From the NCBI GenBank assembly GCA_040390065.1, contig JAZJZE010000009.1, positions 192,001 to 256,000 on the forward strand: DNA of 64,000 bases. The letters are read 5' to 3'. This DNA is from a bacterium. Its GTDB lineage: Archaea > Thermoplasmatota > E2 > JACPAO01 > JAHFTW01. The notes below the pieces were generated by a model. It did no database searches. It saw only the letters and a program-made list of their open reading frames with translations, and was not told where the DNA came from. The position numbers and the translations under genes were made by a program. The stretch's first letter is position 1. Each line of letters begins with the position of its first letter. Positions 3,382-60,203 of this stretch are shown piece after piece.

Positions 3382-3406
3382 GGCAAATGGGGTGAGCCGG
3401 GATCGA
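3382..3406 (-). repeat. Duplicate of the tRNA-Phe 3' end (att-like)
   Basis: ggcaaatggggtgagccgggatcga vs ggcaagtggggtgagccgggatcga at 3490-3514, 24/25 identical. Confidence 0.9.
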
Positions 3407-3495
3407 GGCCACTGGCCTCCGGCCAGCGGCCATACGCGGCCCCGAAGGCCTCGCGCAATCCCGGCTCAGCCACAGCCTCGCTGCGCATCGGCAAG

Positions 3496-3568
3496 TGGGG
3501 TGAGCCGGGATCGAACCGGCGGCATCCAGATCTTCAGTCTGGCACTCTCCCAACTGAGTTACCACCCC
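3496..3568 (-). tRNA. tRNA-Phe(GAA)
   Basis: GGGGTGG/TCACCCC acceptor stem, CCAGA-CTGAAGA-TCTGG anticodon arm, GGTTCGATCCC T-loop; CCA not encoded. Confidence 0.97.
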
Positions 3569-3677
3569 GGGAGACAGGTCGCGCGACAAGTCCGCTCTAT
3601 TTGAAACGCAGGGTCTCGCGCGAGGCGCAGCCGAGCGCGAACGCGGGGTGCAGGGGCGCGCAAGGCGACGGGGGGCC

Positions 3678-5390
3678 TCAGGAGGTGACCGTGAAGGGCA
3701 CGACGACGTCCTCCTTGACCACGGGCGGGTCGGAGATGGACACGGTGGCGTTGCCGGTTCCGGAGCCGGTCCACAGGATGCCGGTGACGGACCAGATGCC
3801 GTCGGCCACCGTTGCGTCGCGGGCCGGCTCGGGGGCTGCAGCGCCGGGCATCTGCAACGTCACGGACACGCAGGAGGCGCGCCCGCAGGTGTTGTTCTCC
3901 AGGGGCGATTCCGCGCCGTCGTCGGCGATGCGTTTGATGGACAAGGTCAGCGTCGCCGTGGCGCCTTGCCTCGGCGCGGAGTCGGCCATGAGCGTGACGG
4001 CGAAGTGTTCGCTGGAGGCCACGGTCTTGTAGCCGGCCGGCGCCGCCGTCGCAGCCAGAGGGGGCGAGACGGAGGTCAGGATGCCCGCGAGCAGGAGCAC
4101 GGCGATGCCAAGGCTCGCCTCGATGGCGACGGTGCGGCGAAGGTGGGTGCCGTCGGCCAGCCCCGCGCGAACCCGGCCGCGGGTGCTCCGCTGAACGACT
4201 TTTTGCACGGTTCCGGCCAGGCCGTCGTCGCGCGGCGCCTCGAGTAGCACGTACCGGTTGATGCCGGCCAGAGCGACCATGACGATGGCGATGGCCACCT
4301 TCCCGATGAGGGCGGCCCCGTAGGCGCTCTGCACGAGGCGCAGGGGATGCAGGAGGCTGTCCAGGCCCAGGATTGTCACGGAGAGCGTGACGCCGGCGAC
4401 GGCGAGCAGGAAGACCGACGTGAGCGCGAGTGTCCCGAAGCGCACGCCCGTGCGTTGCAGCGCATCGGGCGGCTCGCTCGAGCGCCGCAGCATCATGGCG
4501 AAGAGCAGCAGCCCCCCGACCCAGACTGCCGCCGAGACGAGGTGGACGAAGTCGATGACCATGAACGAGATGCCGGCGCCGGAGACGTGCCCCAGACGTG
4601 CGGAACCAGCGGCGGCGCCGAGCAGGAGCGCCGTCACGGCCCAAGGGCCGGTGCGCGTCGGGCGAGCCATGGCCAACGCGGCAAGGAGGAGAGCGCCGCT
4701 GCCGAGGATGGCGCGGGCCATGTAGACGCGACCTGCGCCTTCGGGCGAGCCGATGTACACGCCGAAGCTTGAATGCGTGGCGTGCCAGGCCTGCCAGAAG
4801 ACGAGCAGGGTTCCGACGAAGTGCAGCCCAGACCCCAACAGCATCGCGCGCGCCGCACTACGCGGGGGATACGCCGGAAGCCAGGCGAGGAAGGCGGCGG
4901 CCGCGAGTCCCAGGCTGAAGCCTGCATAGAGAAGTGCACGGCCCAGGGCGGATGCCCAGTCGACGTCGTTGACGCTCTGCCTGGATGACGCCGGCGCGTC
5001 GTAGGCGCCGATTGCGAAGCCGTACGTTTCGACGTTGGGGTGGCCATCGACACTCGAGACCGCCGTGAACGACAGGACGTACTGGCCGGGCGGTAGCGGC
5101 GGAAGGTACACCGTCATGCGCGGCGGGTCATGCTCGATCAACGGCGAGCCACTGTCGACGCGGGCATGGCTCGTGTTGTTCTGGACGTCGATCCTGGAGG
5201 TGGAGACGTCGATCTTCTGGCTGAAGGTCAGGACGAACTGCGTCGGCAGCGCGTCCAGGTGGGGCCGCTCGTTGATAGGCGGGTCGATGGACAAGAGGTC
5301 GGCGTGTGCCGCGGCTGCCGGGACGACGGCCAGCAGGATTGCGCAGGCAAGCAGGCCGCACAGAGCCCGCCAAGGGGCGCCGCGCCTCAT
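3678..5390 (-). CDS. CopC/CopD copper resistance/uptake fusion protein
   Basis: Signal peptide then AAA-HADL (His1), SVDGH motif, multi-TM CopD region with HLVSAAVWVGGL. Confidence 0.88.
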   Translation of the reverse strand: MRRGAPWRALCGLLACAILLAVVPAAAAHADLLSIDPPINERPHLDALPTQFVLTFSQKIDVSTSRIDVQNNTSHARVDSGSPLIEHDPPRMTVYLPPLPPGQYVLSFTAVSSVDGHPNVETYGFAIGAYDAPASSRQSVNDVDWASALGRALLYAGFSLGLAAAAFLAWLPAYPPRSAARAMLLGSGLHFVGTLLVFWQAWHATHSSFGVYIGSPEGAGRVYMARAILGSGALLLAALAMARPTRTGPWAVTALLLGAAAGSARLGHVSGAGISFMVIDFVHLVSAAVWVGGLLLFAMMLRRSSEPPDALQRTGVRFGTLALTSVFLLAVAGVTLSVTILGLDSLLHPLRLVQSAYGAALIGKVAIAIVMVALAGINRYVLLEAPRDDGLAGTVQKVVQRSTRGRVRAGLADGTHLRRTVAIEASLGIAVLLLAGILTSVSPPLAATAAPAGYKTVASSEHFAVTLMADSAPRQGATATLTLSIKRIADDGAESPLENNTCGRASCVSVTLQMPGAAAPEPARDATVADGIWSVTGILWTGSGTGNATVSISDPPVVKEDVVVPFTVTS

Positions 5391-6430
5391 CGCATCCGCC
5401 GGCGGGCAAGCACGACGGCTGTAAGCAGGATGGCTGGGGCCTCAAGGCCCGGCGACGACTTGCCGCCCGTCGTTGCGACGTGGCTTGTCTCGTGCGAGGT
5501 CGATGCCGCCGTGACCTTGAAGGGCACCTGGAGAGTGCGGTGGCCGCCGAGATCCGTCGTAATCGTGACGGTCACGGACCCCTGGGCGCCGGCCGTCGCC
5601 CCGACGAGCGACAGGTGGGCATTGTACGCCTGGCGGCTCGAGAGGCCGATGGACAGCGACTCGGAGTAGGCGCCACTTGCAGGGTCGTGCAAGCGCGCCG
5701 TGACGCCGCCGGCTTGCGTGACAGTGAGTGTTCCCTGCTGCGATGCGTCGAGGAGGTTCTTGATGCTGAGCTGCGCGACTTGTTCGCTGCCCACGCCGAC
5801 GTCAGGGACGCTGCCGGTCTCCAGGCTGGTGTAGTACGACGATCCGCGCAGCTTGTACGGGCTCGTCGGGTCGTAGAAGCAGTCGGCCCTGGCGCCCACG
5901 GCCGGGGGGCAATCGAGGGCCGTGTTGTGGCACGTCCCGGGCATGAAGTCGCCAGAGTCGGCCTCGACCTTGATCCCCGAAAGGCCATCGCCAACCGCAC
6001 CGAGCTTGGACAGCATGATGGTCCCCTCGACGACAAAGCGGGTGCCGTCGCCGACAGAGGCGCCCCCGGTCACGGAGTCGAAGCCGCCGCCATTTGTAAA
6101 GTGGGAGTCGTCGCTCGTCTTCAGGACAAACGCTTGGGCACCCTTGGGCGTCGTGACCGTGATGGTGTCCGTGTGGGCGCCGGCGGAGCCCTTGTCCATG
6201 AGGAGGCGGAACACGGCGACGTCCTTGGCGCCGTCCCACTTCTCCTGGATGTCGAGGGCGAGCAGTTCGTCGGAGCCTTTGCAGTCGTTCGTGCCGCCGT
6301 CGCTTGTGCACTCGTCGACGTAGTCCTCCAACAGCCGCGTGTCCTGGGCGCGCGGCAGGGAGGCGCAGTGGGCCATGGCAGCCGGGGCAAGGACGACCAG
6401 GACGAGCAGCGCAAGGGGCAGGAGACGCAT
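5387..6430 (-). CDS. Secreted surface protein with predicted mature His1 and PGF-CTERM-like anchor
   Basis: AMA-HC signal cleavage; C-terminal SPGLEAP-TM-RRR; paralog of the next gene. Confidence 0.75.
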   Translation of the reverse strand: MRLLPLALLVLVVLAPAAMAHCASLPRAQDTRLLEDYVDECTSDGGTNDCKGSDELLALDIQEKWDGAKDVAVFRLLMDKGSAGAHTDTITVTTPKGAQAFVLKTSDDSHFTNGGGFDSVTGGASVGDGTRFVVEGTIMLSKLGAVGDGLSGIKVEADSGDFMPGTCHNTALDCPPAVGARADCFYDPTSPYKLRGSSYYTSLETGSVPDVGVGSEQVAQLSIKNLLDASQQGTLTVTQAGGVTARLHDPASGAYSESLSIGLSSRQAYNAHLSLVGATAGAQGSVTVTITTDLGGHRTLQVPFKVTAASTSHETSHVATTGGKSSPGLEAPAILLTAVVLARRRMR

Positions 6431-6485
6431 CAAGACACCGGGAGGACGGATTGGGCAGGCCAGGGGGGAGGTAAAGGGGTTGTTG

Positions 6486-7604
6486 TCATGTCCTGGAGCG
6501 GCGTCGGGCAAGAAGGGCGGTGGCCACGGCAAGCCCAGCAAGGGGAGTGCCCAGGTCGGGGCTCTTCTTGCCTTCCGTCGTCTGGCTCATGCCAGCCGGC
6601 GGCTGGCTCTGGTTGGTCATGGCAGGAACCGTGACCGGGATGACGATGGCCGCGAGACCGCCAAGGTCCGTGGCCGCCGAGATTGTGACGGAACCGTCCC
6701 TCGTCGCGTTGGTGACCACCAGGGCAATCGTCTTGGCGGTCCCGTCGGGAAGGTTGACGGATGCTGCGTCCAAGGCGACGGTGATGCCCGGCGAAGGCGT
6801 GAGGGTCAGGTTCGCAAGCTGGGGCATGGTCCTGAGGGTGTTTTGGATTGTCAAGAGGATGTGGGCGGGGCCGTGGCCTAGCGTCGCGGATGGGGCATCG
6901 GCGGTGAAGTTGAGGAGCGCGGCGGGGCCCTGCGTCGTGAACGCGCCTGGCGCCTCCATCCCCTGCGGTATGGCCGGGACCTCCGGGTTCGTGGGATCGT
7001 CCGGCGGTGAGGCTGCCGGGACCATTTGGCCGTTGGAGTACCAGCCGCCCGGCATGTAGTCGCCCTTGGTCGTGCCGACGGAACTGAGGACGGTGACGGA
7101 CGAAACCGCCATTCCCGCCGTGAGGTTGAGGGCCGTGGCGCTGACGAAACACTCGATGGCCTTCGGAGTGCCGTCGCCTACGTCGACGGCCGTCATGGCG
7201 GCGTCCATGCAGGACGGGCCCGCGAAGGCTTTGCCATCGCCGGTGAGGCCCACCGTGAAGTCCTGGCCGTTGACCTTGAAGGCGACGTCCACCTTCCGGT
7301 CCGCGTGCGTGGCCTCTCGCACCTGGAACACGATGCGTAGCGCCAGGGCCGGGCTGCCGTTGTGGTAGGCCTCGCGGACGTCGAGGGCGAGCAGGTCCAT
7401 GGCGCCAGCGTCCGTGGGGCAGGGCTGACCTTCGAGCGTGTCGGGGCAGCCGCCATAGTCCTGCCCGCCGTCGCCGTCGTCCATGAGGACACGTTGGTCG
7501 ATCTCGCGTGGGTCGGGGGCGCCGTGGGCAGCCACGAGCGGCATCCCGGCAAGAAAAGCACAAGCGATGATCCCAGCCAAGACGCCGCGGACACCCTTTG
7601 TCAT
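6486..7604 (-). CDS. Secreted surface protein, paralog of 5387..6430
   Basis: VAA-HG; shared LLALD[IV]xE, VGDGT, GD[FY]MPG, TDLGG motifs; SPDL-TM-RRR tail. Confidence 0.75.
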   Translation of the reverse strand: MTKGVRGVLAGIIACAFLAGMPLVAAHGAPDPREIDQRVLMDDGDGGQDYGGCPDTLEGQPCPTDAGAMDLLALDVREAYHNGSPALALRIVFQVREATHADRKVDVAFKVNGQDFTVGLTGDGKAFAGPSCMDAAMTAVDVGDGTPKAIECFVSATALNLTAGMAVSSVTVLSSVGTTKGDYMPGGWYSNGQMVPAASPPDDPTNPEVPAIPQGMEAPGAFTTQGPAALLNFTADAPSATLGHGPAHILLTIQNTLRTMPQLANLTLTPSPGITVALDAASVNLPDGTAKTIALVVTNATRDGSVTISAATDLGGLAAIVIPVTVPAMTNQSQPPAGMSQTTEGKKSPDLGTPLAGLAVATALLARRRSRT

Positions 7605-7657
7605 TGTTCGAACATGACGCAACGCGACCCATAAGCCTTGTTGTCGCGCACCATGCA

Positions 7658-8191
7658 CTAGGGCGCGACGCCGCGCCGCCCGCGGGGACGGTACAGCCCG
7701 GACCAGGAAGCCGCAAAGCTGTCGACGAGGGCGCTCGGGGGGCGCCAGCGCTGCCCCAGCACGGCCACGTGCGCGGCATCGCGCAAGCGCAGGGTCCGTC
7801 CGTCGCCGTCCTGGACGATGATGCCGGCCTCCGTGAGTTTCGCGACATGGTATGACAAGGTCGACTTCGCGATGCCGAGGCGTTCGGCCATGGTGCCGTG
7901 CGTCGCCGAGCGCACCTCCAGGAGGTGCAGGATGATGGCAAGGGGCAGACGCTGGCGCATCATGGCAAGGACGCGCCTGTCCTCGTCGCGCAGGCCCTTG
8001 CCTGCAGTCGCAAAGAGCCGCAGGTGGTTGCCATCCATGTGGGCTTCGACGACCCCGGCATCGAGCATGCGGCGCACGTGGTATCCGGCCAACGCCTCGC
8101 TCAGTCCGCCTTGGCGGGCAAGCTCGCGCAGGTGCAACCCGGGATAGGCCCCGATCAGGGCAATGAGCGTGCCGTGGCGGCTCTCGGTCAT
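7658..8191 (-). CDS. Tandem winged-helix transcriptional regulator (ArsR/MarR-like, archaeal type)
   Basis: PGLHLRELAR...YHVRRM and THGTMAERLGIAKSTLSYHVAKL. Confidence 0.85.
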   Translation of the reverse strand: MTESRHGTLIALIGAYPGLHLRELARQGGLSEALAGYHVRRMLDAGVVEAHMDGNHLRLFATAGKGLRDEDRRVLAMMRQRLPLAIILHLLEVRSATHGTMAERLGIAKSTLSYHVAKLTEAGIIVQDGDGRTLRLRDAAHVAVLGQRWRPPSALVDSFAASWSGLYRPRGRRGVAP

Positions 8192-8871
8192 CGTCGCACC
8201 GACCAGAAGAGGGGCAACACCAGCAATAACACTGTGGCCAGGTCGCCGGCGGCGTCGACGGACTCCAGTGTCTGGTGCGGAATGACCCCGGTCTGCAAGC
8301 TGTAGGCGACCAAGGCGTCCTTCATGGTGAACAGGGTGAATGCGCTCGCCACGAAGGCCATGTTGGCGTCGCGATTGCGGTGGTAGGCTCGCGCCGCGAA
8401 GCCGACCAGCAGGAGGCTGAGGGCACCGCTTGCGTACAGGAAGGCCACGACCTGCGGACTCGCCCCGGGCGGCTCCGCGTGGGCCGCCCCGCTCGGCGCC
8501 TCGACCACGACAGCATGGGTCCCGTTGGCGCGGTTGGTCCACGTGACAACGCCGCCGGGCGCGACCCGGACCAGGGGCGGCGAAAAACCGACCACCAGGA
8601 GGTCGAGGTCTGCCCGGGTGGGCGCCCCCTCCTCCACTTCGACCCAACCGACCACGTCGGGGCGCTCCTTGCAATGGAAAGCCTGCATGCCAACGTCGGG
8701 GAAGGCGGCGCTCCAGGCCTGGCCAGGCGCAAGGTCGGGGCTGGCAAGGTCACCGACGTGCGCCGCGGCGGGCCCGGCCACCATGAAGGCGGAAACAAGG
8801 GCGAGCAGCCCGATTCGGTGGACCTGCGACCTCGGAACGGCGTCCGCACGAGGTCGCTGTTGCCACGGCAC
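8188..8871 (-). CDS. Cupredoxin-like domain fused to a 3-TM membrane domain
   Basis: SPDLAPGQAWS..F...FHC and FSPPLVRVAPGGVVTWTN..H; C-terminal TMs; 4-nt overlap with the regulator; start uncertain. Confidence 0.65.
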   Translation of the reverse strand: MPWQQRPRADAVPRSQVHRIGLLALVSAFMVAGPAAAHVGDLASPDLAPGQAWSAAFPDVGMQAFHCKERPDVVGWVEVEEGAPTRADLDLLVVGFSPPLVRVAPGGVVTWTNRANGTHAVVVEAPSGAAHAEPPGASPQVVAFLYASGALSLLLVGFAARAYHRNRDANMAFVASAFTLFTMKDALVAYSLQTGVIPHQTLESVDAAGDLATVLLLVLPLFWSVRR

Positions 8872-8962
8872 GCCTGCGCCACACCTGCAGGCCTCATGGG
8901 CGTTGCGGCACGATGCACACGGGGGCCGTCGGGGCACCGGGGGCTTGCGGTCCCCTCGCGGC

Positions 8963-12041: not shown

Positions 12042-12092
12042 GGATGCGCCGAGGTGCGAAGCCATGATGATGTTGCCTGTCATCGCGGATGC

Positions 12093-17852: not shown

Positions 17853-17861
17853 GGCCGCGCA

Positions 17862-25802: not shown

Positions 25803-25984
25803 CGCCCCTCGGCCGAGTGTGGGGGGCCGGGGAGAACAGGAGCCTTGCGCAGAGAAGGGGAATGAGTTCGTGTTCTCCGTTTGGCTCCCGTTCTCCCAGG
25901 CCGCCCATGCCTGAAAGACAGCGAAGTCGCCGAAGCCTGGAAAGGTCGCGTTCCGGTTTTTTCCGTGGCTTCCTCGTCTTTCAG

Positions 25985-26144
25985 GCCCCCCGGCGGCCCT
26001 CGCCATCGCTGCGCTCGGCTCGCCAAGCCCTCGCTTCACCGCGGCTTCGCCGTCGGCGTGCTCGCCCCGGCCGGGGGCTGGCAGGCCATCGGTTGCATCT
26101 GTTGCATCGGTTGACCCGGCGTGGACGTCGCCGCCGTCGGAGGA
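25985..26144. repeat. Dispersed repeat family B, copy 1
   Basis: Shares cccccggcggccc, gctcgccccggccgggggc and gtcgccgccgtcggagga, in order, with 49390-49536. Confidence 0.8.
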
Positions 26145-26219: not shown

Positions 26220-26304
26220 CCGCGGCCCGGCAAGCCGAGCCGCAGGGATTCCGCGGCCGAGCCGGCGGCATCGCGACCAATTCTCTGCGGGCGACTCGCT
26301 TCGC

Positions 26305-27450
26305 TCATGCGCCCTTGAGAAGATTGTTCGCGATGACCATCCTCTGGATCTCGCTCGTCCCCTCGTAGATCTCCGTGATCTTGGCGTCACGGAAGGCCCG
26401 CTCGACGGGGTAATCCTTCGTGTAGCCGTTGCCGCCGTGCACCTGGACGGCCTCCGTCGCAGTCCACATCGCCGTCTCCGAGGCGTACACCTTGGCCATG
26501 GAGGCCTCCTTGGAGTACGGCTTCTTCTCGTCCTTGAGGCGGGCTGCGCGATGGATGAGAAGGCGGGCGGCGTCGATGCGCGTCGCCATGTCGGCGATCT
26601 TCCATTGGATGGCCTGGTTGGAGCCGATGGGTTTGCCGAATTGGCGCCGCTGCTGCGCGTACGACAGGCTGGCCTCGTAGGCCCCGACGGCGATGCCGAG
26701 GGCTTGGCTTGCGATGCCGAGACGGCCGCCGTCGAGCGTCTTCATGGCGACCTTGAAGCCCTCGCCGACGGGCCCGAGGACGTTCTCGTCCGGCACCTGC
26801 ACGTTTTCGAAGAACAGCGGACAGCAGGGCGCGGCGCGGATGCCGAGTTTGTCCTCGGGTTTGCCGATGCGGAAACCGGGCGTGCCCTTCTCCACGAGGA
26901 ACGCGGTCTGGCCCTTGTGCCCGGCCGCCTTGTCCGTCTGGGCGAAGACGACGTACGTCTCGGCGAGTCCCGCATTCGTGATGAAGAGTTTCTGGCCGTT
27001 GAGGACGTAGCCGCGGCCGCTCTTGGTGGCCGTCGTCTGCATCGACACCACGTCGCTGCCGGCGTTGGGTTCCGTGAGTCCGTACGCGCCGAGCTTGCGG
27101 CCGGCGAGCATGGGCTTGAGGAAGCGTTCATGCTGGTCCGCGTTGCCGTACGTGTAGAGGGGCCAGCCGGACAAGGAATTGTTGACGGAGACGATGACGC
27201 CGGTCGAGGCGCAGACGCGCGACAGCTCCTCGATGGCGATGCAGTACGACACCATGTCCGTGCCCGCGCCGCCGGCCTCTTCGGGGAAATTCATTCCCAT
27301 GATGCCGAGGGCGCCAAGCTCGTGCGCCAACTCGGGTGGCCACCGGTGGGTCTCGTCCATCTCCTTGGCGATGGGGCGCAAGCGGCGCTCGGCGAACTCC
27401 CGCACGGTCTGGCGGATGAGGGCGTGCTCCGAGGTGGGCTCCAGGTCCAC
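26305..27450 (-). CDS. Acyl-CoA dehydrogenase (short/branched-chain type)
   Basis: [45 protein letters not shown]. Confidence 0.96.
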
Positions 27451-49358: not shown

Positions 49359-49389
49359 TTCCCCGATGGGTTCATCGTTTCCCCCTTCC

Positions 49390-49636: not shown

Positions 49637-50224
49637 ATGCCTTGCCTGCCGCGCAGCGTGGCCTTCCTCAAGCCCGACGACACGCCTGACGTGGCCTACG
49701 AGTTCTTCGCGCCCTTCGCCCACGTCGAGGGCAAGTACGAGTGGTGCCGCATCCGCAGCCCGACGCACGGCGTCTTCGATTGCTTCATCCTTCTCGGAGC
49801 GACGACGTCCGTCCCCGCCACGGTCTACGTGAACTCCGTCCTCGGCCAAGCCTTCATGCGTGAACGCTACCCCGAATGCGCGACCATCCGCGTCAATCCG
49901 GGCCAACTCAAGGTCGACGAGTCCCCCGACGGGCGCACGGTGACGGGCACTCTCTCGACCACCGAAGGCCCTGTGCGCGCCGCGAGCATGACCCTGCGGG
50001 CGCCCGCCGCGGCCATCCCCACAGCGGTCCCCTACGGCGGCGAAGGCAAGCCCGTGTGGGGCGGCCGCTGGACCTGCTGGGGCGTCGACCTCAACGTCGC
50101 CGGCTCCTGCGACGGCTCCATCGAGCGCCAGGATGGCAAGCGCGTCGTGCTGCGTGGCACGCCGTGCATCGTCACCCTCGGCTCCTTCGCGCGCATCGCG
50201 CCATTGCCAAAATCATCGGCCTAG
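49637..50224 (+). CDS. Hypothetical protein
   Basis: Host-like codon use; no recognised motif. Confidence 0.7.
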   Translation: MPCLPRSVAFLKPDDTPDVAYEFFAPFAHVEGKYEWCRIRSPTHGVFDCFILLGATTSVPATVYVNSVLGQAFMRERYPECATIRVNPGQLKVDESPDGRTVTGTLSTTEGPVRAASMTLRAPAAAIPTAVPYGGEGKPVWGGRWTCWGVDLNVAGSCDGSIERQDGKRVVLRGTPCIVTLGSFARIAPLPKSSA

Positions 50225-52566
50225 CGGCTGCGGCGCACCATCACGACGGTGACCACGACCGCCAGCACCAGTGCCGCGGCGCCAGCCGCCAGCATGACGG
50301 CCAGAAGTCCGTTACCGCCTTGGGCGGGGGCTGCAAGGCCCGCGTCCGTCGACTCAAGAGGCGCGCTTGCGCCAGGACCGCCCGCGGCGGCGAGGTCCTT
50401 GCCGTCGCACACGTCGCCCACCTGGTTGCCGTTGGCATCCAACTGGTCCACGTTGGCCACCGTCGCGCAGTTGTCGGCTGCGTTGGGCACGTTGTCGCCG
50501 TCGATGTCGCTGTCGCAGGCGTCGCCTTCGCCGTCCGCATTCATGTCGGGCTGGTCACCATTGGACGTCTCAGGGCAGTTGTCACGGGCGTTCAGGATCC
50601 TGTCGTTGTCCATGTCCGTGTCGCACGCGTCGCCGACGGCGTCGAGGTCCAGGTCATCCTGGCTCCCGTTGGCAACGAAGACGCAGTTGTCTTGCGCGTT
50701 CAGGATGCCGTCGCCGTCGATGTCTGCGCCAGCGACTGCGGGGTCGACGCCGTCATGCGGCGGGCGCGGCGCGTGGCCGTTGTCCTGCGAGATGGTCGGC
50801 AGCAGACAAGCGTCGCCAACCGTGGCCGTCACAATCTGCGTCTGCTTGGAGACGAAGCCGTTGTCGTCCGTGATGGTCAACGTGACGCTGTAGTCGCCCG
50901 CTCCGGGGTACGTGTGCGTTGGACTTTGCTCATCGCTGGTCGTACCGTCGCCGAACTCCCAGGCCCAGCTGTTGATGGCACCCGTTCCCTTGAGGCTGCC
51001 ATCGATGAAGTGGATGGGATGAGCCCCGCAAACGAGGGAGGGGTCCGTCCACTTGAAACTCGCCCCGGGCGGCAACGGCGGCGGCACCACGAGGGGCGTT
51101 CCACCGAAGGCGTCGTAGAAGTAGGACGTGTAGAAGCCGAGGCCGAGCATCTGGCTTGTAATCGGAATCCCGGGCGGCGCCGCGATGAGGTACGTCGCAC
51201 CGGCTTGGCTCGGAATGAACTTCGTGAAGCACGAATACCCCGAACTGCCGATGGGGCGCTCCACGGCAGGGAACGGAATGGGGGCGCCGCCGTCCGTGGC
51301 GATCGTGATGGGCGTGCCGCCTGGGGCGCCGACGTAGATGGTCGTCTCCCACGTCGGGTCGGCGTACATCCAGTGCCCCGAGGTGGAGCGGTCGATGGCG
51401 GAGATTTCCACGTACGACGGGTCACCGTAAGCGGTGTTGGCGTTGTAGACTTGCGCGAGGGAACCGATCGGGTTGCTGGCGCCAGTCTGGTGCGGCGGCA
51501 CGTCGCTGCGGGCCAGGTACTGCACGACGTGGATCTGGTCCGACGCCGTCACGACCGTGTCGGTGTTGAAGCGGAACAGGCTGTACGTGCCCGGGGTGAC
51601 CGTCGCCGTGGTCGTGCCGCCAATGGCGGGCCTGGCGAACATGATGGTCGTCGGGCCGTTCACGGCACGGATCTTCAGCCAGTCAAGCTGTCCCGTGCCG
51701 CTCTGCTGCGCCGAGCACATGACGTACACCTTGCCGGTGACCGCGTTGGGCAGCATCTGCTCGTTGATGGTGTCGCAGCTGCCGTCTTCGAGGGACAGGC
51801 AGTTGGAGCCGGCGTAGACGGCGCAGGAGGTGGAGCACTTGATGCTGGAGCCGGTGAGGTCGGCGGGCGGGCAGGCCAAGACCGCAATCACGCACGTGAT
51901 GTCGCCGTCCTTCGCCGTGACGTGCAGAGCCCAGCCGCGGTTGACCGTGTAGCCATAAGGTGTACCGGGAACCATGGGCGGCACGGTGACGCCCGACGCC
52001 ACCGTGCCCGCGGTGGGGACGGAGACCATGACCGTCACGGTTGTCGAGTCCTTGATGGCGACGACGGTGAAGTAGGCGGGGTTCGGGTTGAGGTACGCGA
52101 TGCTGTTGGCGGCGGTCGCCACGACGTAGTCCTTGCCGAGCTTGCTCTCAGGCAAGAGGCGCGTCGCATCGGTGGTTGCGCTGACGCCGTAGACTGCGGT
52201 CGTCTGCATGACCGAGAAGTCGTTGTCCGAGGTCGTGACGAGGTAGGTCGCCTTGTTGGAAAGTTGCGTGAAGTCGTAGGCGTCGCCGAAACTGTATTGG
52301 TTCGTCGTGGCAAACGGGACAGGCCCGCCTCCGACTGGGACCAGGCCGGCTTTCAGGTATTGCACGGTTCCGATTCCCGAACCCAGGAGGCCGGTGCCGT
52401 GATACGTCGTCGAGATGACCGTCGTCGGCTGGCCGTCGACTTCGTACGTGGGCAGGCCGATGCCCCAGTAGTTCTCGGCGCTCGCGTGATGCGGCAGGAC
52501 CAACAGGACGACTGCGACGCCGGCGGCCGCAACAAACAGGGTTGCAAGAGGGACTCGTGAATCCAT
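50221..52566 (-). CDS. Surface protein: IgGFc-binding-like N-domain, PKD, thrombospondin type-3 repeats, TM anchor
   Basis: LLPESKLGKDYV, WAWEFGDG, DxDGDGxxxxxDNC repeats, TM-RRSR. Confidence 0.85.
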   Translation of the reverse strand: MDSRVPLATLFVAAAGVAVVLLVLPHHASAENYWGIGLPTYEVDGQPTTVISTTYHGTGLLGSGIGTVQYLKAGLVPVGGGPVPFATTNQYSFGDAYDFTQLSNKATYLVTTSDNDFSVMQTTAVYGVSATTDATRLLPESKLGKDYVVATAANSIAYLNPNPAYFTVVAIKDSTTVTVMVSVPTAGTVASGVTVPPMVPGTPYGYTVNRGWALHVTAKDGDITCVIAVLACPPADLTGSSIKCSTSCAVYAGSNCLSLEDGSCDTINEQMLPNAVTGKVYVMCSAQQSGTGQLDWLKIRAVNGPTTIMFARPAIGGTTTATVTPGTYSLFRFNTDTVVTASDQIHVVQYLARSDVPPHQTGASNPIGSLAQVYNANTAYGDPSYVEISAIDRSTSGHWMYADPTWETTIYVGAPGGTPITIATDGGAPIPFPAVERPIGSSGYSCFTKFIPSQAGATYLIAAPPGIPITSQMLGLGFYTSYFYDAFGGTPLVVPPPLPPGASFKWTDPSLVCGAHPIHFIDGSLKGTGAINSWAWEFGDGTTSDEQSPTHTYPGAGDYSVTLTITDDNGFVSKQTQIVTATVGDACLLPTISQDNGHAPRPPHDGVDPAVAGADIDGDGILNAQDNCVFVANGSQDDLDLDAVGDACDTDMDNDRILNARDNCPETSNGDQPDMNADGEGDACDSDIDGDNVPNAADNCATVANVDQLDANGNQVGDVCDGKDLAAAGGPGASAPLESTDAGLAAPAQGGNGLLAVMLAAGAAALVLAVVVTVVMVRRSR

Positions 52567-52699
52567 ACCCAACACTCAATCGACGACCGACCTCGTGGTA
52601 CTTAGGGATTATCCTGCACGACGACGGGCGGTTGCCTTTGGCTGCGAATTCCGCACCATGGTTCCCAATTATCGAGTCGCCTCGTGCCGGCGGGGCGAC

Positions 52700-52951: not shown

Positions 52952-53037
52952 GGGGTCGACCCGGCGAGGCAAAGCGCTCGGGCGTTGATAGCCTGTTCCC
53001 CGCGGCAAGCGCGCAGCGGCGCCGTGACGCGGGCCGT

Positions 53038-54021: not shown

Positions 54022-54042
54022 GGCCGTCGCACCAGGGGGTGG

Positions 54043-55698
54043 TCAAAAAGCCTTGGCGTCGCCAGGAGGCGGAGCCGGCAGGGGCGGAATGGCGAATTGC
54101 TTCGCCTCGACGAGGTAGGCCTGCCACTCGGCCGCCTGGCGCTTTGCGTCCCAGCCGAGCAAGTCGGCCATCCAGGTGAGCGCGGCCTGCGCTGGACCCG
54201 GGTTGCCGTCGTGTTGCAAGCCGAGGTCCGTGCGGCGCAGCAGGGCGTCGCCGAGGTGCAGGGCCTGCTCGCTGCGCACGGCGTAGGTGACCTCGCAGCC
54301 GAGGTGCGGCGCATCCATGTGAAGGGCGCGGCGCGCCCCCGGCCGCGCATCGCAGGACACGACGTCACGCCACGTTGCACCGTACGTTGCCAGCAGGCGC
54401 TCGGCCGTGGCGGAGGCAAACCCCATGCCACTCGCCTCCGCCAGGGCGTTGGCGCGGAAGTCCTGCCATGCGCCCTCGGGGCACCCGATGTAGGGCGTGG
54501 TCAGTGTCGGATGCGTCCGGGCCTGCGCTTTGCGGCCGAGGCTGCGCGCAACGCGGTCGACCGTCTCCTGCGCAAGCCGCCGTGCAGTCGTGATCTTGCC
54601 GCCCTGCAGCGTCCAGAGGCCGTCGACGTCGTCGCGGCGGGCGTGGTCGTAGATGACGTGGCGACGCGTGACGTTGGATTCCGTCACGCCAGGTTGGTTG
54701 ACGAGGGCCCGCACGCCGGCGTACGTGTACTGGAGGCGGTCGAGCGGCGCGTCCGGGAAGTATTCGCGCGCCGCATTGGTGAGGTAGGCGACATCGGCGG
54801 CGTCGGCGACGGCGTCGTACGGGTCGCCTTCGTAGTCGGTGTCCGTCGTGCCGACGATGGAATGCTGCTCCCAGGGCAGGACGAAGAAGCTGCGGCCGTC
54901 TCGGTTGCGCACCATGACCGCGACGTCGCAGAAGCGCGGCACCACGAGGTGCGTGCCCTTGGTCTTGCGCACTTTGGGCGGCAAGCCGTCGCCGAGCGGC
55001 CCCAGGACCTCGTCGACCCAGCAGCCGCTCGCGTTCACGACCGCGCGCGCCCGCACGGACCAGACCTTTCCGTCCTCGTCCTCGACGCGGGCGCCCGTCA
55101 CACGGCGGCGACCCGCCTCGCGCGAGAACTCCAGGAAATCGACGCGCGTGTGGTTCAAGGTCACGGCGCCTAGGGCCCGGGCCTCGACCACCATCTCCAC
55201 GATGAGGCGCTCGACGCGGCGGATCTGGCCGTCATAGAACGTGGCGGCCCCCGCGAGGTCGGCAGGGCGCAGGGCAGGTGCCAATGCCAACGTGGCGTCA
55301 CGCCGCAAGTAAGCGCGGCGCGGCAGGGACTTGCCGCGGCTTAGCAAGTCGTACAGCCACAATCCGATCCTGACCGTGCGCCGGGCGGCCACGTGCGGGT
55401 AAAGAGGATAGACGAAGCGCAGCGGGCGCACCAGGTGCGGGGCCTGCCGCAGCAGCAGCTCGCGTTCCTGCAGGGCTTCGTGCACCAAGGCGAACTCGAA
55501 CTGCTCGAGGTACCGCAGGCCGCCATGCGCAAGTTTGGAGGACTTGGCCGACGTCCCGGCACCCCAATCCCGCATCTCGACGAGGCAGACGGACAGACCG
55601 CGCAGCGCCGCGTCGCGCGCGATGGCAGCGCCGTTGACGCCCCCGCCCACGACGAGCACGTCGAAGGTCCGGCCGCTCGGGTCGTCGCCTTCGGGCAC
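54043..55698 (-). CDS. glpD: FAD-dependent glycerol-3-phosphate dehydrogenase
   Basis: GGGVNG, GTSAKSSKLAHGGLRYLE, GTTD, GGKITTAR, RRTDL. Confidence 0.92.
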   Translation of the reverse strand: MPEGDDPSGRTFDVLVVGGGVNGAAIARDAALRGLSVCLVEMRDWGAGTSAKSSKLAHGGLRYLEQFEFALVHEALQERELLLRQAPHLVRPLRFVYPLYPHVAARRTVRIGLWLYDLLSRGKSLPRRAYLRRDATLALAPALRPADLAGAATFYDGQIRRVERLIVEMVVEARALGAVTLNHTRVDFLEFSREAGRRRVTGARVEDEDGKVWSVRARAVVNASGCWVDEVLGPLGDGLPPKVRKTKGTHLVVPRFCDVAVMVRNRDGRSFFVLPWEQHSIVGTTDTDYEGDPYDAVADAADVAYLTNAAREYFPDAPLDRLQYTYAGVRALVNQPGVTESNVTRRHVIYDHARRDDVDGLWTLQGGKITTARRLAQETVDRVARSLGRKAQARTHPTLTTPYIGCPEGAWQDFRANALAEASGMGFASATAERLLATYGATWRDVVSCDARPGARRALHMDAPHLGCEVTYAVRSEQALHLGDALLRRTDLGLQHDGNPGPAQAALTWMADLLGWDAKRQAAEWQAYLVEAKQFAIPPLPAPPPGDAKAF

Positions 55699-55748
55699 GG
55701 GCCGGGGACGGCGATGCAGCCCTTAGCCGTAGCGCAGCGCGTCGGCGC

Positions 55749-56177
55749 TCACGATGGCAGCGTGACGGAGCGCGCAAGGTCGCGGGCACCAAGCGCCAGA
55801 CGTGCAAGGGCCGTGTCGGCTAGGCTCGACAACTCGACGCGCGGGAACTTGGCCTGCGGGTCGAAGCCGGCGTCCGGCAGTTCCGGGCGCTCGTCGCACC
55901 ACGCCGTCCACGACGCCGCGGAGACGCCGTGGGCGTGCAGCAGGACGCGGGCCAACTCGAGGCGGGGAGAGGCTCCCGCGTGCAGCGTGCCGGCGGTGAA
56001 GGGCCGGCCTTGCGCATCTACGGCGACGAGGCGGATGGCCAAACGCCCGACTGCGAGGTTGCCGCCGCCGCCTTGCCAGGCGTGGGCGATGGTCCGCACC
56101 GGCAGGGCGACAGGCGGGTCGAGCCCTTGCAGGAAGCCGAGCAGCGCCGTTTCAGCCTGAACCTCGGGGGCTCCCAT
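55749..56177 (-). CDS. Hypothetical protein
   Basis: Fills the gap; ATG at 56177. Confidence 0.45.
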   Translation of the reverse strand: MGAPEVQAETALLGFLQGLDPPVALPVRTIAHAWQGGGGNLAVGRLAIRLVAVDAQGRPFTAGTLHAGASPRLELARVLLHAHGVSAASWTAWCDERPELPDAGFDPQAKFPRVELSSLADTALARLALGARDLARSVTLPS

Positions 56178-56358
56178 GCACCGTTTCCATGGCGGTGGCA
56201 CTTATGAGGCTATTCGGGTCAGGCAGGCTGCAGCGCAACCTGGGCGTGCCCAGGCAAGGGGATCCGGTTTGCGCCCGCCGCAATCGCATCGATGTCCGCC
56301 GATGGTCTCCCTGGCAGTTGCCGAAACGCTCATGTTGTTCCACCTGGGTGCCCGCGTC

Positions 56359-57048
56359 GTGAAGGAAGCGCTCCTGGAGAAGATGGCGGGCGAGATCACG
56401 CTCTCTGCTGCACCGGGGCCCACCATCCGAAAGTGGCGCGAATCCTTCGAATTGTCGCAATCGGAACTGGCCGCCCGCCTGGACGTCAACCCGAGCGTCG
56501 TCTCCGACTACGAATCGGGCCGCCGCAAGTCGCCGGGCATCGGGACCGTCCGGCGCATCGTCGAAGCCCTCGTCGACCTCGACGCGCAGCGGGGCGGCCA
56601 CGTGCTTGCACGCTACCACAGCCTCCTGAACCCGACGGAGGGCATCCTGGCCATCGGAGAATATCGCCGCAGCGTGCCGGGGCCCGAATTCCTCGAACGC
56701 ATCGAGGGCCGCGCCCTCGTCATGGCCAACCTGGCGCAGAGGTCGGTGCAGGGGTACACGCTCATCGACTCTCTCAAGGCCATTGCGAGCCTGAACGCAA
56801 CGGACTACGTGCGCGTCTACGGCTGGAACACGCAGCGCGCCCTGTGCTTCACCGGCATCAAGTACGGCCGCAGCCCGATGATCGCCATCCGGGTGCACCC
56901 GATGAAGCCCAGCCTCGTCGTGTACCACCGCCCTGAGGACGTCGACAAGCTCGCGTACCGCCTGGCCGAGTACGAACAGATCCCGCTGCTGACCACGGAC
57001 CTCGACTTGGACGAACTGGAAGCGCGCCTTGCAAGCTTGGTCGGCTAG
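56359..57048 (+). CDS. Archaeal Cro/C1-type HTH transcriptional regulator
   Basis: MAGEITLS..PG..IRKWRE.F..SQ, SDYESGRRKSPG, GRSPMIAIRV; start uncertain. Confidence 0.88.
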   Translation: MKEALLEKMAGEITLSAAPGPTIRKWRESFELSQSELAARLDVNPSVVSDYESGRRKSPGIGTVRRIVEALVDLDAQRGGHVLARYHSLLNPTEGILAIGEYRRSVPGPEFLERIEGRALVMANLAQRSVQGYTLIDSLKAIASLNATDYVRVYGWNTQRALCFTGIKYGRSPMIAIRVHPMKPSLVVYHRPEDVDKLAYRLAEYEQIPLLTTDLDLDELEARLASLVG

Positions 57049-59144
57049 GCCGAGCCGCGCCGCTGCCGCACTGCAAGGGCGACCAAGACGGCGACGAGGG
57101 CGGCGGCGCCGGCCATCATGGCAAGCGACGCCATCGTGAACTGCAACCCGTGGGCCCCCTGGAGTTGAGCCACCGGCGTGCCGGCGCACGGGTCGCACGC
57201 AGGCCGCGCGGCCGTTGCTGCACATGCGTCACCGACGCCGTCGCCGTTGGCATCCTTCTGGTCCGGGTTGGGCTTGAGCGGACAATCGTCGAGGAAGATG
57301 CCCACGTCGCCGGCCTGCGGCACGCCGTCGCCGTCGAGGTCGAGGTCGCAGGCGTCGCCCTGGTGGTCGCGGTCCATGTCGGTTTGGTCGCGGTTGGCGA
57401 TGCCGGGGCAATTGTCCACGGCGTCGTCCACCCAGTCGGCGTCGTCGTCGTGGATCGGCCGGGCGGCCGCCGCAGCGGTCGAGGTCGGGACGTCCGGTTC
57501 GTCCGGCTGGGCGTCGCAGGCATCGCCCAGACTATCGCGGTCGCGGTCGACCTGCTCATGGTTGGGGACGCTGGGGCAATTGTCGGCGATGTCCTCGATG
57601 CCGTCACGATCACTGTCCAAGGAATCGTCCATGTGGGAGGCCTCGGGCACGACGATGTTGAACCGTGTCGCGGCGAAGTTGTGCGCATCACGCACGGTGA
57701 CCGTCATGGTCCAGGTCCCGGTCTGCTTGACGAGCCAAATCCAGCAGTGGGTTTCCCAATCGAACTGGCCGCCCTCCGGCGCACCCTCGACCTGCCAGGA
57801 CAGCACGGGGGTGTCCGCGTCTGCCGCAGTGAAACAGATTTCCATGGTGTGATCGACGTGGCCGAGCCGGTCGCGCTCGTTCACGATGGTGGGCGGGCAG
57901 TCCGTGTCGGCGAACGCCTGGATGGTCTTGGTCATCGTCGACACTCCTTTTGCGGAGTCCTTGACGGTGAGCGTCACGTCGTACCAGCCGGTCACCGCGT
58001 AGGGGTGCGTGACGGCGGGCCCGGTGCCCCCGTTGCCATCACCGAAGTCCCAGTCCCACGACACGATGTCGCCGTCGGGGTCGGAGGCGGTGCTGGTGAA
58101 GTGCACGACGGGGTCCATGCAGGACTGGTCCGCCTGGTACTCGAATGACGCCACGGGAGGCTTGCCCGCCAGGTCGCCGCCGAAGGCCATGAAGAACGTG
58201 ACATCGAGGTTGGCCGCGCACGCCGCGGCGCAGAGGTGGGAGCGGTCGACGTTGAAGATGAGGGCCCCGATGGCCGCGAGGTCCGCCATGGCTGCCGGCC
58301 TGGTTGGGGCGGCGCCGTAGTACAGCGTGAAGGTGCGCGACGCCTTTGGGGCGAGGGTGCCGAAGTTGAAGTCCCACACCATGGCAGAGTCGGCCGGCCC
58401 TTGGTCGATAAGCGGAATGTTGGAGCCGGAGTTCGGGCCGCTGCCGAGGGAGACGAAGCCGTAGGTGGGGACCGGACACGTGGATGCCGAGGCGATGCGC
58501 GTCGCGACGATGGGGCTTGGCCCGAAGGATCCCGACGGGATGGTGTCGATTGTCTCCAGGGTCGAGTCGTCGTTGACGCCGGCCGAACCCCAGGACATGA
58601 CGCGGCGGTACAGCACGTTCGTGAGGGTGAAGGACGGGCTGTCGTTCTTCATCGTGATGTGGTCCTGGTACACGTCCGGGACCCCGGGGAACGGCTCGTA
58701 CTTCTGCGTCATGATGAGGTTGTTGATGACCACGACCGACTCGGCCGTCGTGGCGTCGCTCGTGAACGTGACGTCGGTTGGCGGGAAGGCCGAGACGCCG
58801 ACGCAGTTGTTCGTGTAGCCGGCCGTGTTCTTGTAGGCCGCAACGTTCTGGCCGGCGACGGTGACGCCCCAGCCCTCGCCTTCGAAGTCGCAGTCCATGC
58901 CCTCGTCGCCCGTCGGGTCGTAGTACACGCTCGTCACGGTGTTGGCGCAGTTCGTCGACTGCGGTCCACCTGGCTGCATGAGCTGGCCGGTCTTCTGTAC
59001 ACCGAGGTGGAGGTTGCCGCTGCCGATGACCGCCTGCCCGTCGGCCGGTTGGGTCAGTACGAGAAGGGCAACGGCACCGGCAAGGACGGCTGCCGCGCAC
59101 AGCAGGCCGACCGGCAGGGTCCGCGTCGATGACAGCAGCACCAC
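57045..59144 (-). CDS. Surface protein with PKD and thrombospondin type-3 repeats, TM anchor
   Basis: WDWDFGDG, DSDRDGIEDIADNCP repeats, TM-RQRR. Confidence 0.85.
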   Translation of the reverse strand: MVLLSSTRTLPVGLLCAAAVLAGAVALLVLTQPADGQAVIGSGNLHLGVQKTGQLMQPGGPQSTNCANTVTSVYYDPTGDEGMDCDFEGEGWGVTVAGQNVAAYKNTAGYTNNCVGVSAFPPTDVTFTSDATTAESVVVINNLIMTQKYEPFPGVPDVYQDHITMKNDSPSFTLTNVLYRRVMSWGSAGVNDDSTLETIDTIPSGSFGPSPIVATRIASASTCPVPTYGFVSLGSGPNSGSNIPLIDQGPADSAMVWDFNFGTLAPKASRTFTLYYGAAPTRPAAMADLAAIGALIFNVDRSHLCAAACAANLDVTFFMAFGGDLAGKPPVASFEYQADQSCMDPVVHFTSTASDPDGDIVSWDWDFGDGNGGTGPAVTHPYAVTGWYDVTLTVKDSAKGVSTMTKTIQAFADTDCPPTIVNERDRLGHVDHTMEICFTAADADTPVLSWQVEGAPEGGQFDWETHCWIWLVKQTGTWTMTVTVRDAHNFAATRFNIVVPEASHMDDSLDSDRDGIEDIADNCPSVPNHEQVDRDRDSLGDACDAQPDEPDVPTSTAAAAARPIHDDDADWVDDAVDNCPGIANRDQTDMDRDHQGDACDLDLDGDGVPQAGDVGIFLDDCPLKPNPDQKDANGDGVGDACAATAARPACDPCAGTPVAQLQGAHGLQFTMASLAMMAGAAALVAVLVALAVRQRRGSA

Positions 59145-59190
59145 CGCGCGGCAATCAGACTGGACCTAAATGGTTCTTCTGGCCCTTCCC

Positions 59191-59703
59191 CTAAGGGGAG
59201 ACGCGCACGCCGAGCCGGGCGAGAAAGACGAGGAGGCCAAAGAGGAGCCAGAAGATGGCGCCGGAGCCGCCGAGGACGATTGCGGCCGTGTCCCAGCGCT
59301 TGGCCCAAGGGAAATCCAGGCGCTTGTAGTAGCGGTGATTCGACAGGAAGACCCACGCGCCGAGCGCGAAGACCACGAGCGACGAGCCGATGGCCCACGT
59401 CGGCGACACTCCAGAGCCCGTCGTGCAGGACGCCGCGGCGCCTTTCGGGCAGCCGGCAAGCAGGTACACCAAGGCGATGCTGGCCGCCATGAGGCTTGCG
59501 CCAAACCATTCGCCATACAGGAAGCCGCGCGCCGCCGTGTACTTCGCGACGGTCTCCTCGGTGACGGCCATGCCGGCGCGGGCCTTCTGAGCACGCACCT
59601 TGCGGGCCTTCGTCTCGGGGTGGTTGCGCGAACCGAAGCGCTGCAGCAGGCCCATCGGCTTTTCCGGCGTCTCCGGTTGCGGCGGGTGGTCGGCGGGCGG
59701 CAT
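59191..59703 (-). CDS. Hypothetical 3-TM membrane protein
   Basis: Three hydrophobic helices; host-like codons. Confidence 0.7.
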   Translation of the reverse strand: MPPADHPPQPETPEKPMGLLQRFGSRNHPETKARKVRAQKARAGMAVTEETVAKYTAARGFLYGEWFGASLMAASIALVYLLAGCPKGAAASCTTGSGVSPTWAIGSSLVVFALGAWVFLSNHRYYKRLDFPWAKRWDTAAIVLGGSGAIFWLLFGLLVFLARLGVRVSP

Positions 59704-59780
59704 GGCCTCGTCGGGCACGGAGGCGGCCAGGAACGGGTTGTAGATGAAGGGTTGCGGGGGTGGCTGCGCAGGCGACGGCT

Positions 59781-60203
59781 CCCAACTGAAACAGGAATCC
59801 ACAGAATCGACGGAAATCCGACAAACCAGGGTTCCGTGGATTCGGTGGATTCCGATGCCGGGGCGAGGGCCGGGCAGCGGCCCCACCGTGATGCCGGCTC
59901 ACGGGCCACTGGCAGAAGCGCTCGCCATTCCGTGGGGTTCCGTACGCTCCGTGGCTCGTCAGGGGGACGCGCGCGACTTGCCAGAAGGCAATCAGTTGCG
60001 GTGTCCGACGACGACGCCCGACTGGAACAGGAATCCACGGAATCCACAGAAACCCAAGCAGTCGCGGTTCGGTGGATTCGGTGGATTCCAATGTCCGGGG
60101 CGGGGGCTGCGCAGCCCGCCTAGATTATGCCCGAAAACGCCCAACCCGCGCAACAGTTGGCTGCTCAGCGGACTCAGTGGTTGGTCACGGATACGCGCGC
60201 GAC
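59781..60203. repeat. Diverged tandem duplication (~230 bp unit) with GGAATCCAC hairpins and the asnS 3' end
   Basis: Hairpins at 59794-59853 and 60030-60089; 59959-59977 matches 60185-60203 at 16/19. Confidence 0.8.

Follow-up and report, generated by a model that had tools for sequence, protein, structure and literature searches.

Why should three genes within 64 kb of one archaeal genome each have their 3' end repeated a short distance downstream? The question is raised by the window, that is, the whole 64-kb stretch analysed here (positions 192001-256000 of contig C9, genome G000), in which an initial annotation had reported such repeats behind genes for tRNA-Phe, an acyl-CoA dehydrogenase (acd) and an asparagine-tRNA ligase (asnS). 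The tRNA-Phe and acd inserts are best explained as lineage-specific forked-hairpin modules that stand at the ends of tRNA genes, and of some protein genes, in a single uncultured family of Thermoplasmatota, and to this explanation as a whole we give a probability of roughly 0.5. In our best reading, the module is non-autonomous and regenerates the gene end. It resembles a very small mobile element of a kind not yet described; full-text literature searches, whose scope did not extend to subscription journals, returned no prior description of gene-end duplications with an internal antisense copy.

Source genome and nomenclature

G000 is a metagenome-assembled genome (MAG) of an uncultured Thermoplasmatota archaeon (2.68 Mb, 50 contigs, 89% complete, 67% G+C). 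The nearest public acyl-CoA dehydrogenase loci (83-90% identity) were found in MAGs labelled Thermoplasmata or Thermoplasmatota archaeon, which makes the source an archaeon and not a bacterium. All genomes compared were MAGs with a completeness of 65-94%, so an enzyme that was not found in them is not necessarily absent. The parts of a unit are named in the gene sense: T is the gene end, T' its antisense copy, T2 its direct copy, H1 to H3 are hairpins, and P1 is the closing stem.

Gene-end duplications in the window

The three duplications were recovered at the offsets first reported (108, 119 and 226) by a repeat search of the window. The repeat pairs were 3382-3406/3490-3514 at tRNA-Phe (24/25 identical, spacing 108), 26190-26219/26309-26338 at acd (27/30 identical, spacing 119), and 59947-59977/60173-60203 at asnS (25/31 identical, spacing 226). 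The acd pair could be extended to 34 nt in register with the stop codon, and 10 identical residues and a stop are thus encoded twice. The upstream genes were identified as tRNA-Phe (3495-3568, minus strand), acyl-CoA dehydrogenase (three Pfam domains), and asparagine-tRNA ligase (NF003037, 431 bits against a cut-off of 414). The near-equal size of the tRNA-Phe and acd inserts was also confirmed (83 and 85 nt, respectively), and neither contained an open reading frame (ORF). The window loci have the integrase-type direct repeat of a gene 3' end flanking an insert; no integrase gene lay between the repeats in the 83- and 85-nt inserts, and the integrases of G000 were located elsewhere in the genome.

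Shared architecture and predicted fold

At both loci, the parts follow one another outward from the gene in the order T, H1, T', H2, H3, T2. The tRNA-Phe unit consists of the following features:

3490-3514, minus strand: T, last 20 nt of the tRNA (T loop to discriminator) and 5 nt of flank; the functional copy
3474-3489, minus strand: H1, short hairpin with the GCGCAGC mini-hairpin motif, immediately 3' of the tRNA
3456-3473, minus strand: T', imperfect antisense of the tRNA 3' end, 5' strand of P1 (z 3.3 against shuffled spacers)
3435-3455, minus strand: H2, first inner fork hairpin, by folding
3407-3431, minus strand: H3, second inner fork hairpin, 11-bp stem
3382-3406, minus strand: T2, direct copy of T (24/25), 3' strand of P1

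The acd unit has the same parts:

26305-26338, minus strand: T, last 10 codons and the TGA stop
26295-26304, minus strand: H1, GCGAAGC mini-hairpin motif immediately after the stop codon
26269-26294, minus strand: T', imperfect antisense copy of the gene 3' end (z 7.2 against shuffled spacers)
26251-26268, minus strand: H2, inner hairpin, by folding
26220-26247, minus strand: H3, inner hairpin, 13-bp stem, CTTG loop
26186-26219, minus strand: T2, second gene-end copy with the same 10 residues and TAG; 4/4 differing codons synonymous

The tip of H1 is thus GCGNAGC in both units. The motif is described as an extraordinarily stable DNA mini-hairpin in a physical-chemistry source (PMC13037366), which does not deal with a genomic element. 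Since T' pairs with T2, each unit folds as a small hairpin followed by a fork that is closed by a long stem. The predicted single-stranded DNA folding energies of the two window units were -37.9 and -40.5 kcal/mol. On the gene-sense strand, the folds had z scores of -5.23 and -3.67, and none of 200 dinucleotide shuffles folded as well; the folds of the opposite strand were weaker (z -3.91 and -2.58).

The two inserts are akin in architecture (GCGNAGC tip, antisense target copy, and forked fold), not in primary sequence. The ordered motifs that they had been proposed to share did not withstand shuffling: the Smith-Waterman score was 19, compared with 17.4 +/- 2.7 in dinucleotide shuffles, 145 of 500 of which reached that score. 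No other copies of either insert were found in G000 by BLAST, the best other matches being exact runs of at most 16 nt, so the unit family is not recognisable from primary sequence. In Rfam 15, only the tRNA reached the gathering threshold; the other best matches were far below it, with nothing at E values up to 10. As a ribozyme or K-turn candidate, the H2 junction was rejected by eye, as it fits neither the hammerhead core nor the K-turn rules. The GCGNAGC motif is also contained in 69 GAGCGNAGCGA sites in G000; most of those inspected were hairpin tips with site-specific stems, many of them immediately after stop codons or tRNA ends.

Frequency and properties of the units in the genome

Local direct repeats, defined by a length of 20 nt or more, an identity of 80% or more and a spacing of 50-350, were counted in G000 and in an order-3 Markov copy of the genome. 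There were 271 in the former and 7 in the latter. Of the 271, 39 overlapped a predicted gene or tRNA 3' end, 142 lay within one coding sequence (CDS), and 90 were elsewhere. For tRNA genes predicted by ARAGORN, the last 16 nt were searched up to 450 nt downstream with at most three mismatches; 18 of 52 had a downstream copy, including five with two extra copies. The last 20 coding nt of each predicted CDS were searched 30-320 nt downstream, and copies were found behind 11 of 1711 CDS, compared with 0 and 0 in two reversed-sequence controls. Two of these genes (C9:35450 and C9:586228) have a TGA supplied by the unit, and the distal copy continues without a stop; the insertion there truncated a C-terminal tail. 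In the initial annotation, a frequency at shuffled expectation together with unrelated inserts had been named as the sign of three independent local duplications; the frequency is far above the Markov expectation, and the tRNA-Phe and acd inserts are not significantly alike in primary sequence but have a common architecture.

The units are approximately 90-160 nt in size, and some sites have a single unit and others a tandem array. In 17 of the 22 tRNA-linked units without N, a stem of 8 bp or more was predicted between T' and T2; in silico, the stems were 14-23 bp long with one to three interruptions. Stem pairs in the tRNA-linked units totalled 262 Watson-Crick and 22 G-U pairs, with approximately 40 unpaired positions on the T2 strand. 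The inner stem end and the 5' edge of the direct repeat were at most 3 nt apart in 8 of 14 units and at most 5 nt apart in 12. The length of the duplicated stretch is variable, T ranging from approximately 17 to 46 nt along with the stem, and duplications overall from 20 to approximately 78 nt. An alignment of 18 units from four genomes showed compensatory changes in 7 of 16 consensus pairs, and one stem position was G-U in 11 of the 18. H3 hairpins of the CTGCGGCYGCGC...GCGCGGCCGCAG type are common to the sites downstream of tRNA-Leu, -Gln, -Arg and acd. One unit with mirror orientation was found at the 5' end of a tRNA-Leu gene (C6:18192), where the first 36 nt of the tRNA are duplicated. 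H1 and T' adjoin the functional gene copy in every case, the mirrored unit included. Constant terminal inverted repeats with a fixed short target-site duplication, which define MITEs (miniature inverted-repeat transposable elements), were not seen, the T' and T2 arms being target-dependent.

A second hairpin module, GTGGGGCC-GAGCGNAGCGAG-GGCCCCAC followed by GATCGACCTG...CAGGTCG, likewise lies between two gene-end copies. Sites of this GTGGGGCC type are C9:185340-185616 (tRNA-Met), C9:471394-471649 (tRNA-Tyr), C5:78736, C5:313587, and C13:25535; their duplications are longer (38-74 nt), and no clear antisense copy was seen in them.

Distribution among related genomes

Among 11 genomes of the genus, the tRNA-Phe site was empty in three (G010, G004 and G007), carried the duplication in six, and had hairpins only in two. 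In the empty sites, the tRNA is directly followed by the small conserved ORF that is seen beyond T2 in G000, and the flank beyond T2 corresponds to the flank directly 3' of the tRNA in these genomes. The ORF itself (3210-3380, minus strand, downstream of tRNA-Phe) matched no Pfam family and keeps its position in all three. The tRNA-Phe inserts of the six duplicated genomes were mostly dissimilar as read, some sharing peculiarities of T', and two units each were present in G002 and in G006. The acd duplication was found in 4 of 12 genomes of the genus, twice in G006. Units of the same build stand behind tRNA-Leu, -Gln, -Gly, -Val, -Ala and -Lys genes in G004, G005, G006, G007, G012, G013, and G324. 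The unit family is polymorphic among sister species.

For a wider view, 401 genomes of the phylum were scanned with the pattern GGRTTYGCC, 35-65 nt, CRAATCC, which detects only the tRNA-type fork. Element-like matches were confined to the window's family: 13 in G000, 3-10 in seven of the eight other genomes of genus g1, and 13 and 3 in G324 and G013, respectively, which belong to other genera of the family. Elsewhere in the phylum, there were 0-4 matches per genome, those listed being AT-rich and chance-like, and reversed-pattern controls were at or near zero. Some matches in G008, G011 and G012 represent a different, periodic repeat.

The gene end is left intact, orthologous sites differ among species, and units are single or tandem; the units are thus very probably a family of insertion modules that are gained and lost. 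The proposal of a recurrent non-coding insert family at conserved gene ends that keeps the gene intact stands for the tRNA and acd loci but not for asnS (see below).

In the 12 genomes, the acd gene ends with TGA in three of four cases with a downstream unit and with TAG or TAA in seven of eight without the duplication. The exception is G008, in which TGA is followed by a GCGCAGC hairpin with no second copy. This pattern suggests that the unit may often bring its own stop codon.

An alternative is that the units are structured RNA that serves the host, either as a co-transcribed module for 3'-end processing, termination or stabilisation that is kept by selection or, in a variant, as a small RNA that would be released by tRNA-processing enzymes. 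All 3'-end units have the same orientation to the gene, folding is better on the gene-sense than on the antisense strand, one stem position is recurrently G-U (see above), and T' co-varies with T. On the other hand, close species differ in the presence of the unit at the same gene, a single gene may be followed by 1 to 3 copies, and the mirrored unit 5' of tRNA-Leu would be transcribed in antisense. No Rfam family was matched, and G-U pairs are not clearly enriched (22 of 284 stem pairs, set against the unpaired T2-strand positions). We regard this alternative as improbable.

Recombinases, transposases and the integrase island

The repeats of the gene end, with T beginning in the T loop like many integrase attachment sites, could also be scars of integrase islands: after integration into a tRNA 3' end, internal deletion would leave fused attL and attR arms between tRNA-end copies. 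G000 encodes six tyrosine recombinases (PF00589), which no observation ties to the units, and one of the six belongs to a 12.5-kb integrase island that lies in a tRNA-Lys gene outside the window (C4:105117-117855), flanked by tRNA-end copies. The ends of this island are without H1, T' and fork; a separate, complete unit follows, and then a third end copy. Moreover, the fold of the units is conserved and gene fragments are missing from them, 18 tRNAs and protein genes besides cannot all be served by one integrase family, and the antisense copy is left unexplained. A scar origin is thus very improbable. ORF-bearing full versions of the module, which had been anticipated, were not found, and the tRNA-Lys island without the module at its ends does not qualify as one.

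Other enzymes of mobility were sought as Y1-HUH transposase, TnpB, reverse transcriptase and Cas1, and none was associated with the units; the search covered these four families. In the incomplete MAGs, the Y1-HUH transposase/RAYT domain (PF01797) and TnpB were each found in none of 26 genomes of the family, and Cas1 (PF01867) in none of 13 genomes of the genus. Reverse transcriptase (PF00078) was not found in G000 and was found in 1 of the 26 family genomes (G016), which had no match to the fork pattern. The marker enzymes of REP/REPIN families (RAYT), of IS200/IS605-derived elements (TnpA or TnpB), of CRISPR arrays or casposons (Cas1) and of retroelements such as retrons, group II introns and DGRs (reverse transcriptase) were not found alongside the units in the genomes searched.

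Relations among T, T' and T2 and the proposed mechanism

In four genomes, the acd T and the nearest T2 differ in ten codons, nine of which are synonymous; the tenth is a difference of serine against threonine and yields a residue used at that position by other species. By a rough estimate of ours, in which about 30% of random changes are synonymous, nine of ten would occur by chance with a probability of approximately 1e-4, which argues that T and T2 of acd diverged as working gene ends. One copy would then have been derived from, or overwritten by, another lineage. In a 42-nt duplication at asnS of G007, all four differing codons are synonymous as well. In its 3' part, the acd T' of G000 agrees with T in unusual states (AAT, TCTC), and in the 5' part that of G006 agrees with T2 in GCC; such a split of variants is predicted by a single crossover inside T with a module that carries its own T and T'.

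T' also matches its own target in duplex energy. It was -24.6 kcal/mol with the cognate T compared with -17.2 kcal/mol with non-cognate ones, the cognate ranking first in 8 of 13 units; for the target-specific last 12 nt, the values were -13.4 and -9.1, and the cognate ranked first in 5 of 13.

A mechanism can be tentatively outlined from these comparisons. The module would move as a small folded intermediate, single-stranded or circular, that carries its own copy of the target end. Pairing of T' with the carried T would produce a duplex look-alike of the chromosomal site, and one recombination inside T would insert the unit, regenerate the gene end, and leave T2. As the target would be regenerated by the insertion, the unit could re-insert and build arrays, and recombination between T and T2 would remove it without a scar. 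The acting enzyme might come from the recombination proteins of the host or be among the six tyrosine recombinases. We regard this carried-copy mechanism as possible, with the odds rather against it.

The same pairing can be read in another way. In a guide-directed insertion with a true target-site duplication, the module would consist of H1, T' and the fork only; T' would pair with the exposed sense strand, nicks would be made at both ends of the paired stretch, and fill-in would make T and T2 from resident DNA. The boundaries of T, T' and T2 coincide, the length of T varies with the stem (approximately 17 to 46 nt), most units have a T2 that equals the resident T exactly or almost so, and a conserved scaffold is combined with arms that depend on the target. 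In G007, a T' apparently inherited from a sister tRNA-Leu is combined with a T2 of the resident type. If copies started identical and T2 then decayed, however, coding differences between T and T2 would not be almost all synonymous; T' tracks the synonymous variants that T has in individual species, which would require every event to rewrite it; and the searches above yielded no nuclease or transposase candidate (TnpB and Y1-HUH 0/26, Cas1 0/13). We regard guide-directed insertion as unlikely, and equally so its furthest form, in which the units are a programmable, gene-free archaeal module of approximately 100 nt whose T' guides insertion at the terminal 17-35 nt of a tRNA or protein gene, exactly the paired stretch is duplicated, and host enzymes or an unrecognised protein do the work. 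If it were true, this would be a minimal nucleic-acid-guided mobile element without a transposase of its own, and categorically new.

Several observations weigh against the carried-copy module. Three tandem units behind one tRNA-Leu gene in G007 have near-identical forks and unrelated H1, which is not predicted by it. Two units behind tRNA-Leu(CAG) of the same genome have a T' that is perfect for tRNA-Leu(TAG) and a T2 of the CAG type, a mismatch more in keeping with a true target-site duplication than with a carried copy. The crossover signature was seen at two loci only. By an ungapped 11-mer measure, the target-specific 13 nt barely separate cognate (8.06) from non-cognate targets (7.62). 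The carried-copy model leaves the origin of each target-specific T/T' pair unexplained and, as T differs at every target, no single sequence-specific recombinase could serve all of them. No mobilising enzyme was identified, and the mobilisation in trans envisaged in the initial annotation stays conjectural on that account. No intermediate, excision junction, polymorphism or alternative contig was seen in the assembled contigs of one run, probably the source of the sequence, which are the only data that cover the site. Finally, only MAGs were compared, and the CDS ends came from our own crude GC3-based caller.

If the modules are mobile, they would be the smallest known elements that restore the gene they enter, and the first non-coding module to combine, for many different targets, a direct with an inverted copy of the target. 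They would bear on the question of how attachment-site specificity can reside in nucleic acid instead of protein, on how tRNA gene ends turn into insertion hot spots, and on the build-up of intergenic DNA in uncultured archaea. As a third of the tRNA genes of G000 are affected, there are consequences for the annotation and assembly of these lineages and for island finders that rely on tRNAs.

The asnS locus and other repeats

The gap between asnS and the next gene (59656-60184, 529 nt) consists of two units of approximately 230 nt, A and B, each with a gene-end copy, a spacer, a palindrome and a short tail. The features of the locus are as follows:

60173-60203, minus strand: asnS 3' end, comprising the final 6 codons with TGA and 12 flanking nt; first copy in the ~230-nt unit A
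60009-60099, minus strand: palindrome Pa, 91 nt, 9-bp periodicity, GGAATCCAC type, inside unit A
59947-59977, minus strand: decayed second asnS-end copy (25/31, one non-synonymous codon); starts unit B
59773-59863, minus strand: palindrome Pb, 91 nt, 9-bp periodicity, 79% like Pa, inside unit B

Units A and B align end to end with a mean column identity of 79%: the gene ends are 81% identical and, as read, the palindromes roughly 80-90% and the spacers roughly 50%. No antisense target copy was found at asnS (z -0.5 against shuffled spacers), and Smith-Waterman comparison of the insert with the tRNA-Phe or acd insert was not significant against shuffles. With no antisense copy, unrelated cargo, and a full-length unit alignment, asnS falls outside the forked-hairpin family; it is another gene end that attracts insertions, and the duplication there resembles a copy, tandem or of foreign origin, of the entire unit downstream. 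The site also varies among relatives: the next gene begins 8 nt past the stop codon in G009, one palindrome directly follows the gene without a duplication in G002, and in G007 the 42-nt duplication encloses a different hairpin insert, with a palindrome after the second copy.

With asnS resembling a diverged tandem duplication of a whole unit, an endogenous origin comes into view for the tRNA and acd units as well: replication template switching or slippage at hairpin-rich DNA would create local duplications, both inverted and direct, and tandem arrays, later homogenised by gene conversion. A sense-antisense-sense order is expected from two template switches, duplication lengths are spread from 20 to approximately 78 nt, arrays are common, and no transposase family was found among those sought. 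This reading is nevertheless quite unlikely, as the same H2/H3 scaffold recurs at unrelated loci, sister species have different inserts at one site, the local sequence is not the origin of H2 and H3, an imperfect T' is found even with T and T2 exactly the same, and the codon differences between T and T2 of acd are synonymous in 9 of 10 cases.

Periodic 9-bp palindromes had been reported next to both acd and asnS. At asnS, two are present (91 nt each), whereas acd has only a one-armed run of three 9-mers (26087-26113), for which no inverted partner was found in the 240 nt read. The 9-bp periodic palindromes are separate repeat families and not part of the tRNA/acd module. Palindromes and one-armed runs of 9-bp words fall into several subfamilies (GGAATCCAC, CAAC[AC]GATG, and GAACCACTG types), as was also seen in a period-9 scan with TRF (841 matches, mostly coding at a low threshold, used only to show that there are several subfamilies). 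Further sites in G000 are C9:566.8k, C3:18.2k, C3:83.9k, and C11:27.3k, and palindromes of the same kind occur in relatives at the asnS locus (G002 and G007) and behind tRNA-Phe (G003). The periodicity suggests arrays of putative protein-binding sites.

At 25950-26140, beyond the acd T2, lies an intergenic repeat of approximately 190 nt with a mosaic structure. It has dozens of partial copies in the genome (e.g., C9:71.4k, 329.8k, 519.4k, 428.9k, 266.0k and 270.9k; C8:10.4k and 16.9k), in which modules are recombined in varying orders, as in bacterial interspersed mosaic elements (BIMEs). Elsewhere in the window, three periodic copies of 108 nt (65-71% identical) lie at 50443-50724 inside a long ORF (50221-52575, minus strand) and probably encode a repeated Asp/Gly-rich protein domain.

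Comparison with known systems

The units resemble MITEs and REP/BIME hairpin repeats in being small, non-coding, hairpin-forming, multicopy, mosaic and non-autonomous. They differ from these in that their arms copy the target instead of being constant terminal repeats, and in that the duplicated stretch is extended and of variable length instead of a few bases of constant number; the search for Y1-HUH in 26 genomes revealed neither a parent insertion sequence nor a RAYT.

With elements that target the 3' ends of tRNA genes by tyrosine integrases, the units share a direct repeat of the tRNA 3' part that starts in the T loop, the restored gene end, and the use of protein-gene 3' ends as well. 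Unlike those elements, they have no integrase or any ORF and contain an antisense copy of the target, and the real integrase island of G000 is without the module.

A segment complementary to the attachment site is also known from the homing spacers of CRISPR-associated transposons (CAST), the bridge RNA of IS110, and the omega RNA of TnpB. Such guide-carrying elements often attach at the end of a conserved gene or tRNA, and they depend on Cas, DEDD or TnpB proteins encoded in an element of large size. Here, Cas1 was found in 0/13 and TnpB in 0/26 genomes. To our knowledge, no CAST, IS110 or TnpB system duplicates the whole guided segment.

In the attachment region of CTX phage, an integrative mobile element exploiting Xer (IMEX), and in integron attC sites, a single strand folds into a duplex that imitates the chromosomal site, and XerCD or IntI acts there on one fixed sequence (dif or attI). 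The paired arms of our units differ across more than 20 targets, and the units are approximately 100 nt long with no cargo gene and no assigned recombinase. What they have in common with CTX-type IMEX and attC is an imperfect inverted repeat through whose folding one strand by itself offers the target in duplex form, insertion that would regenerate the target and so lead to tandem arrays, and structure that outweighs sequence.

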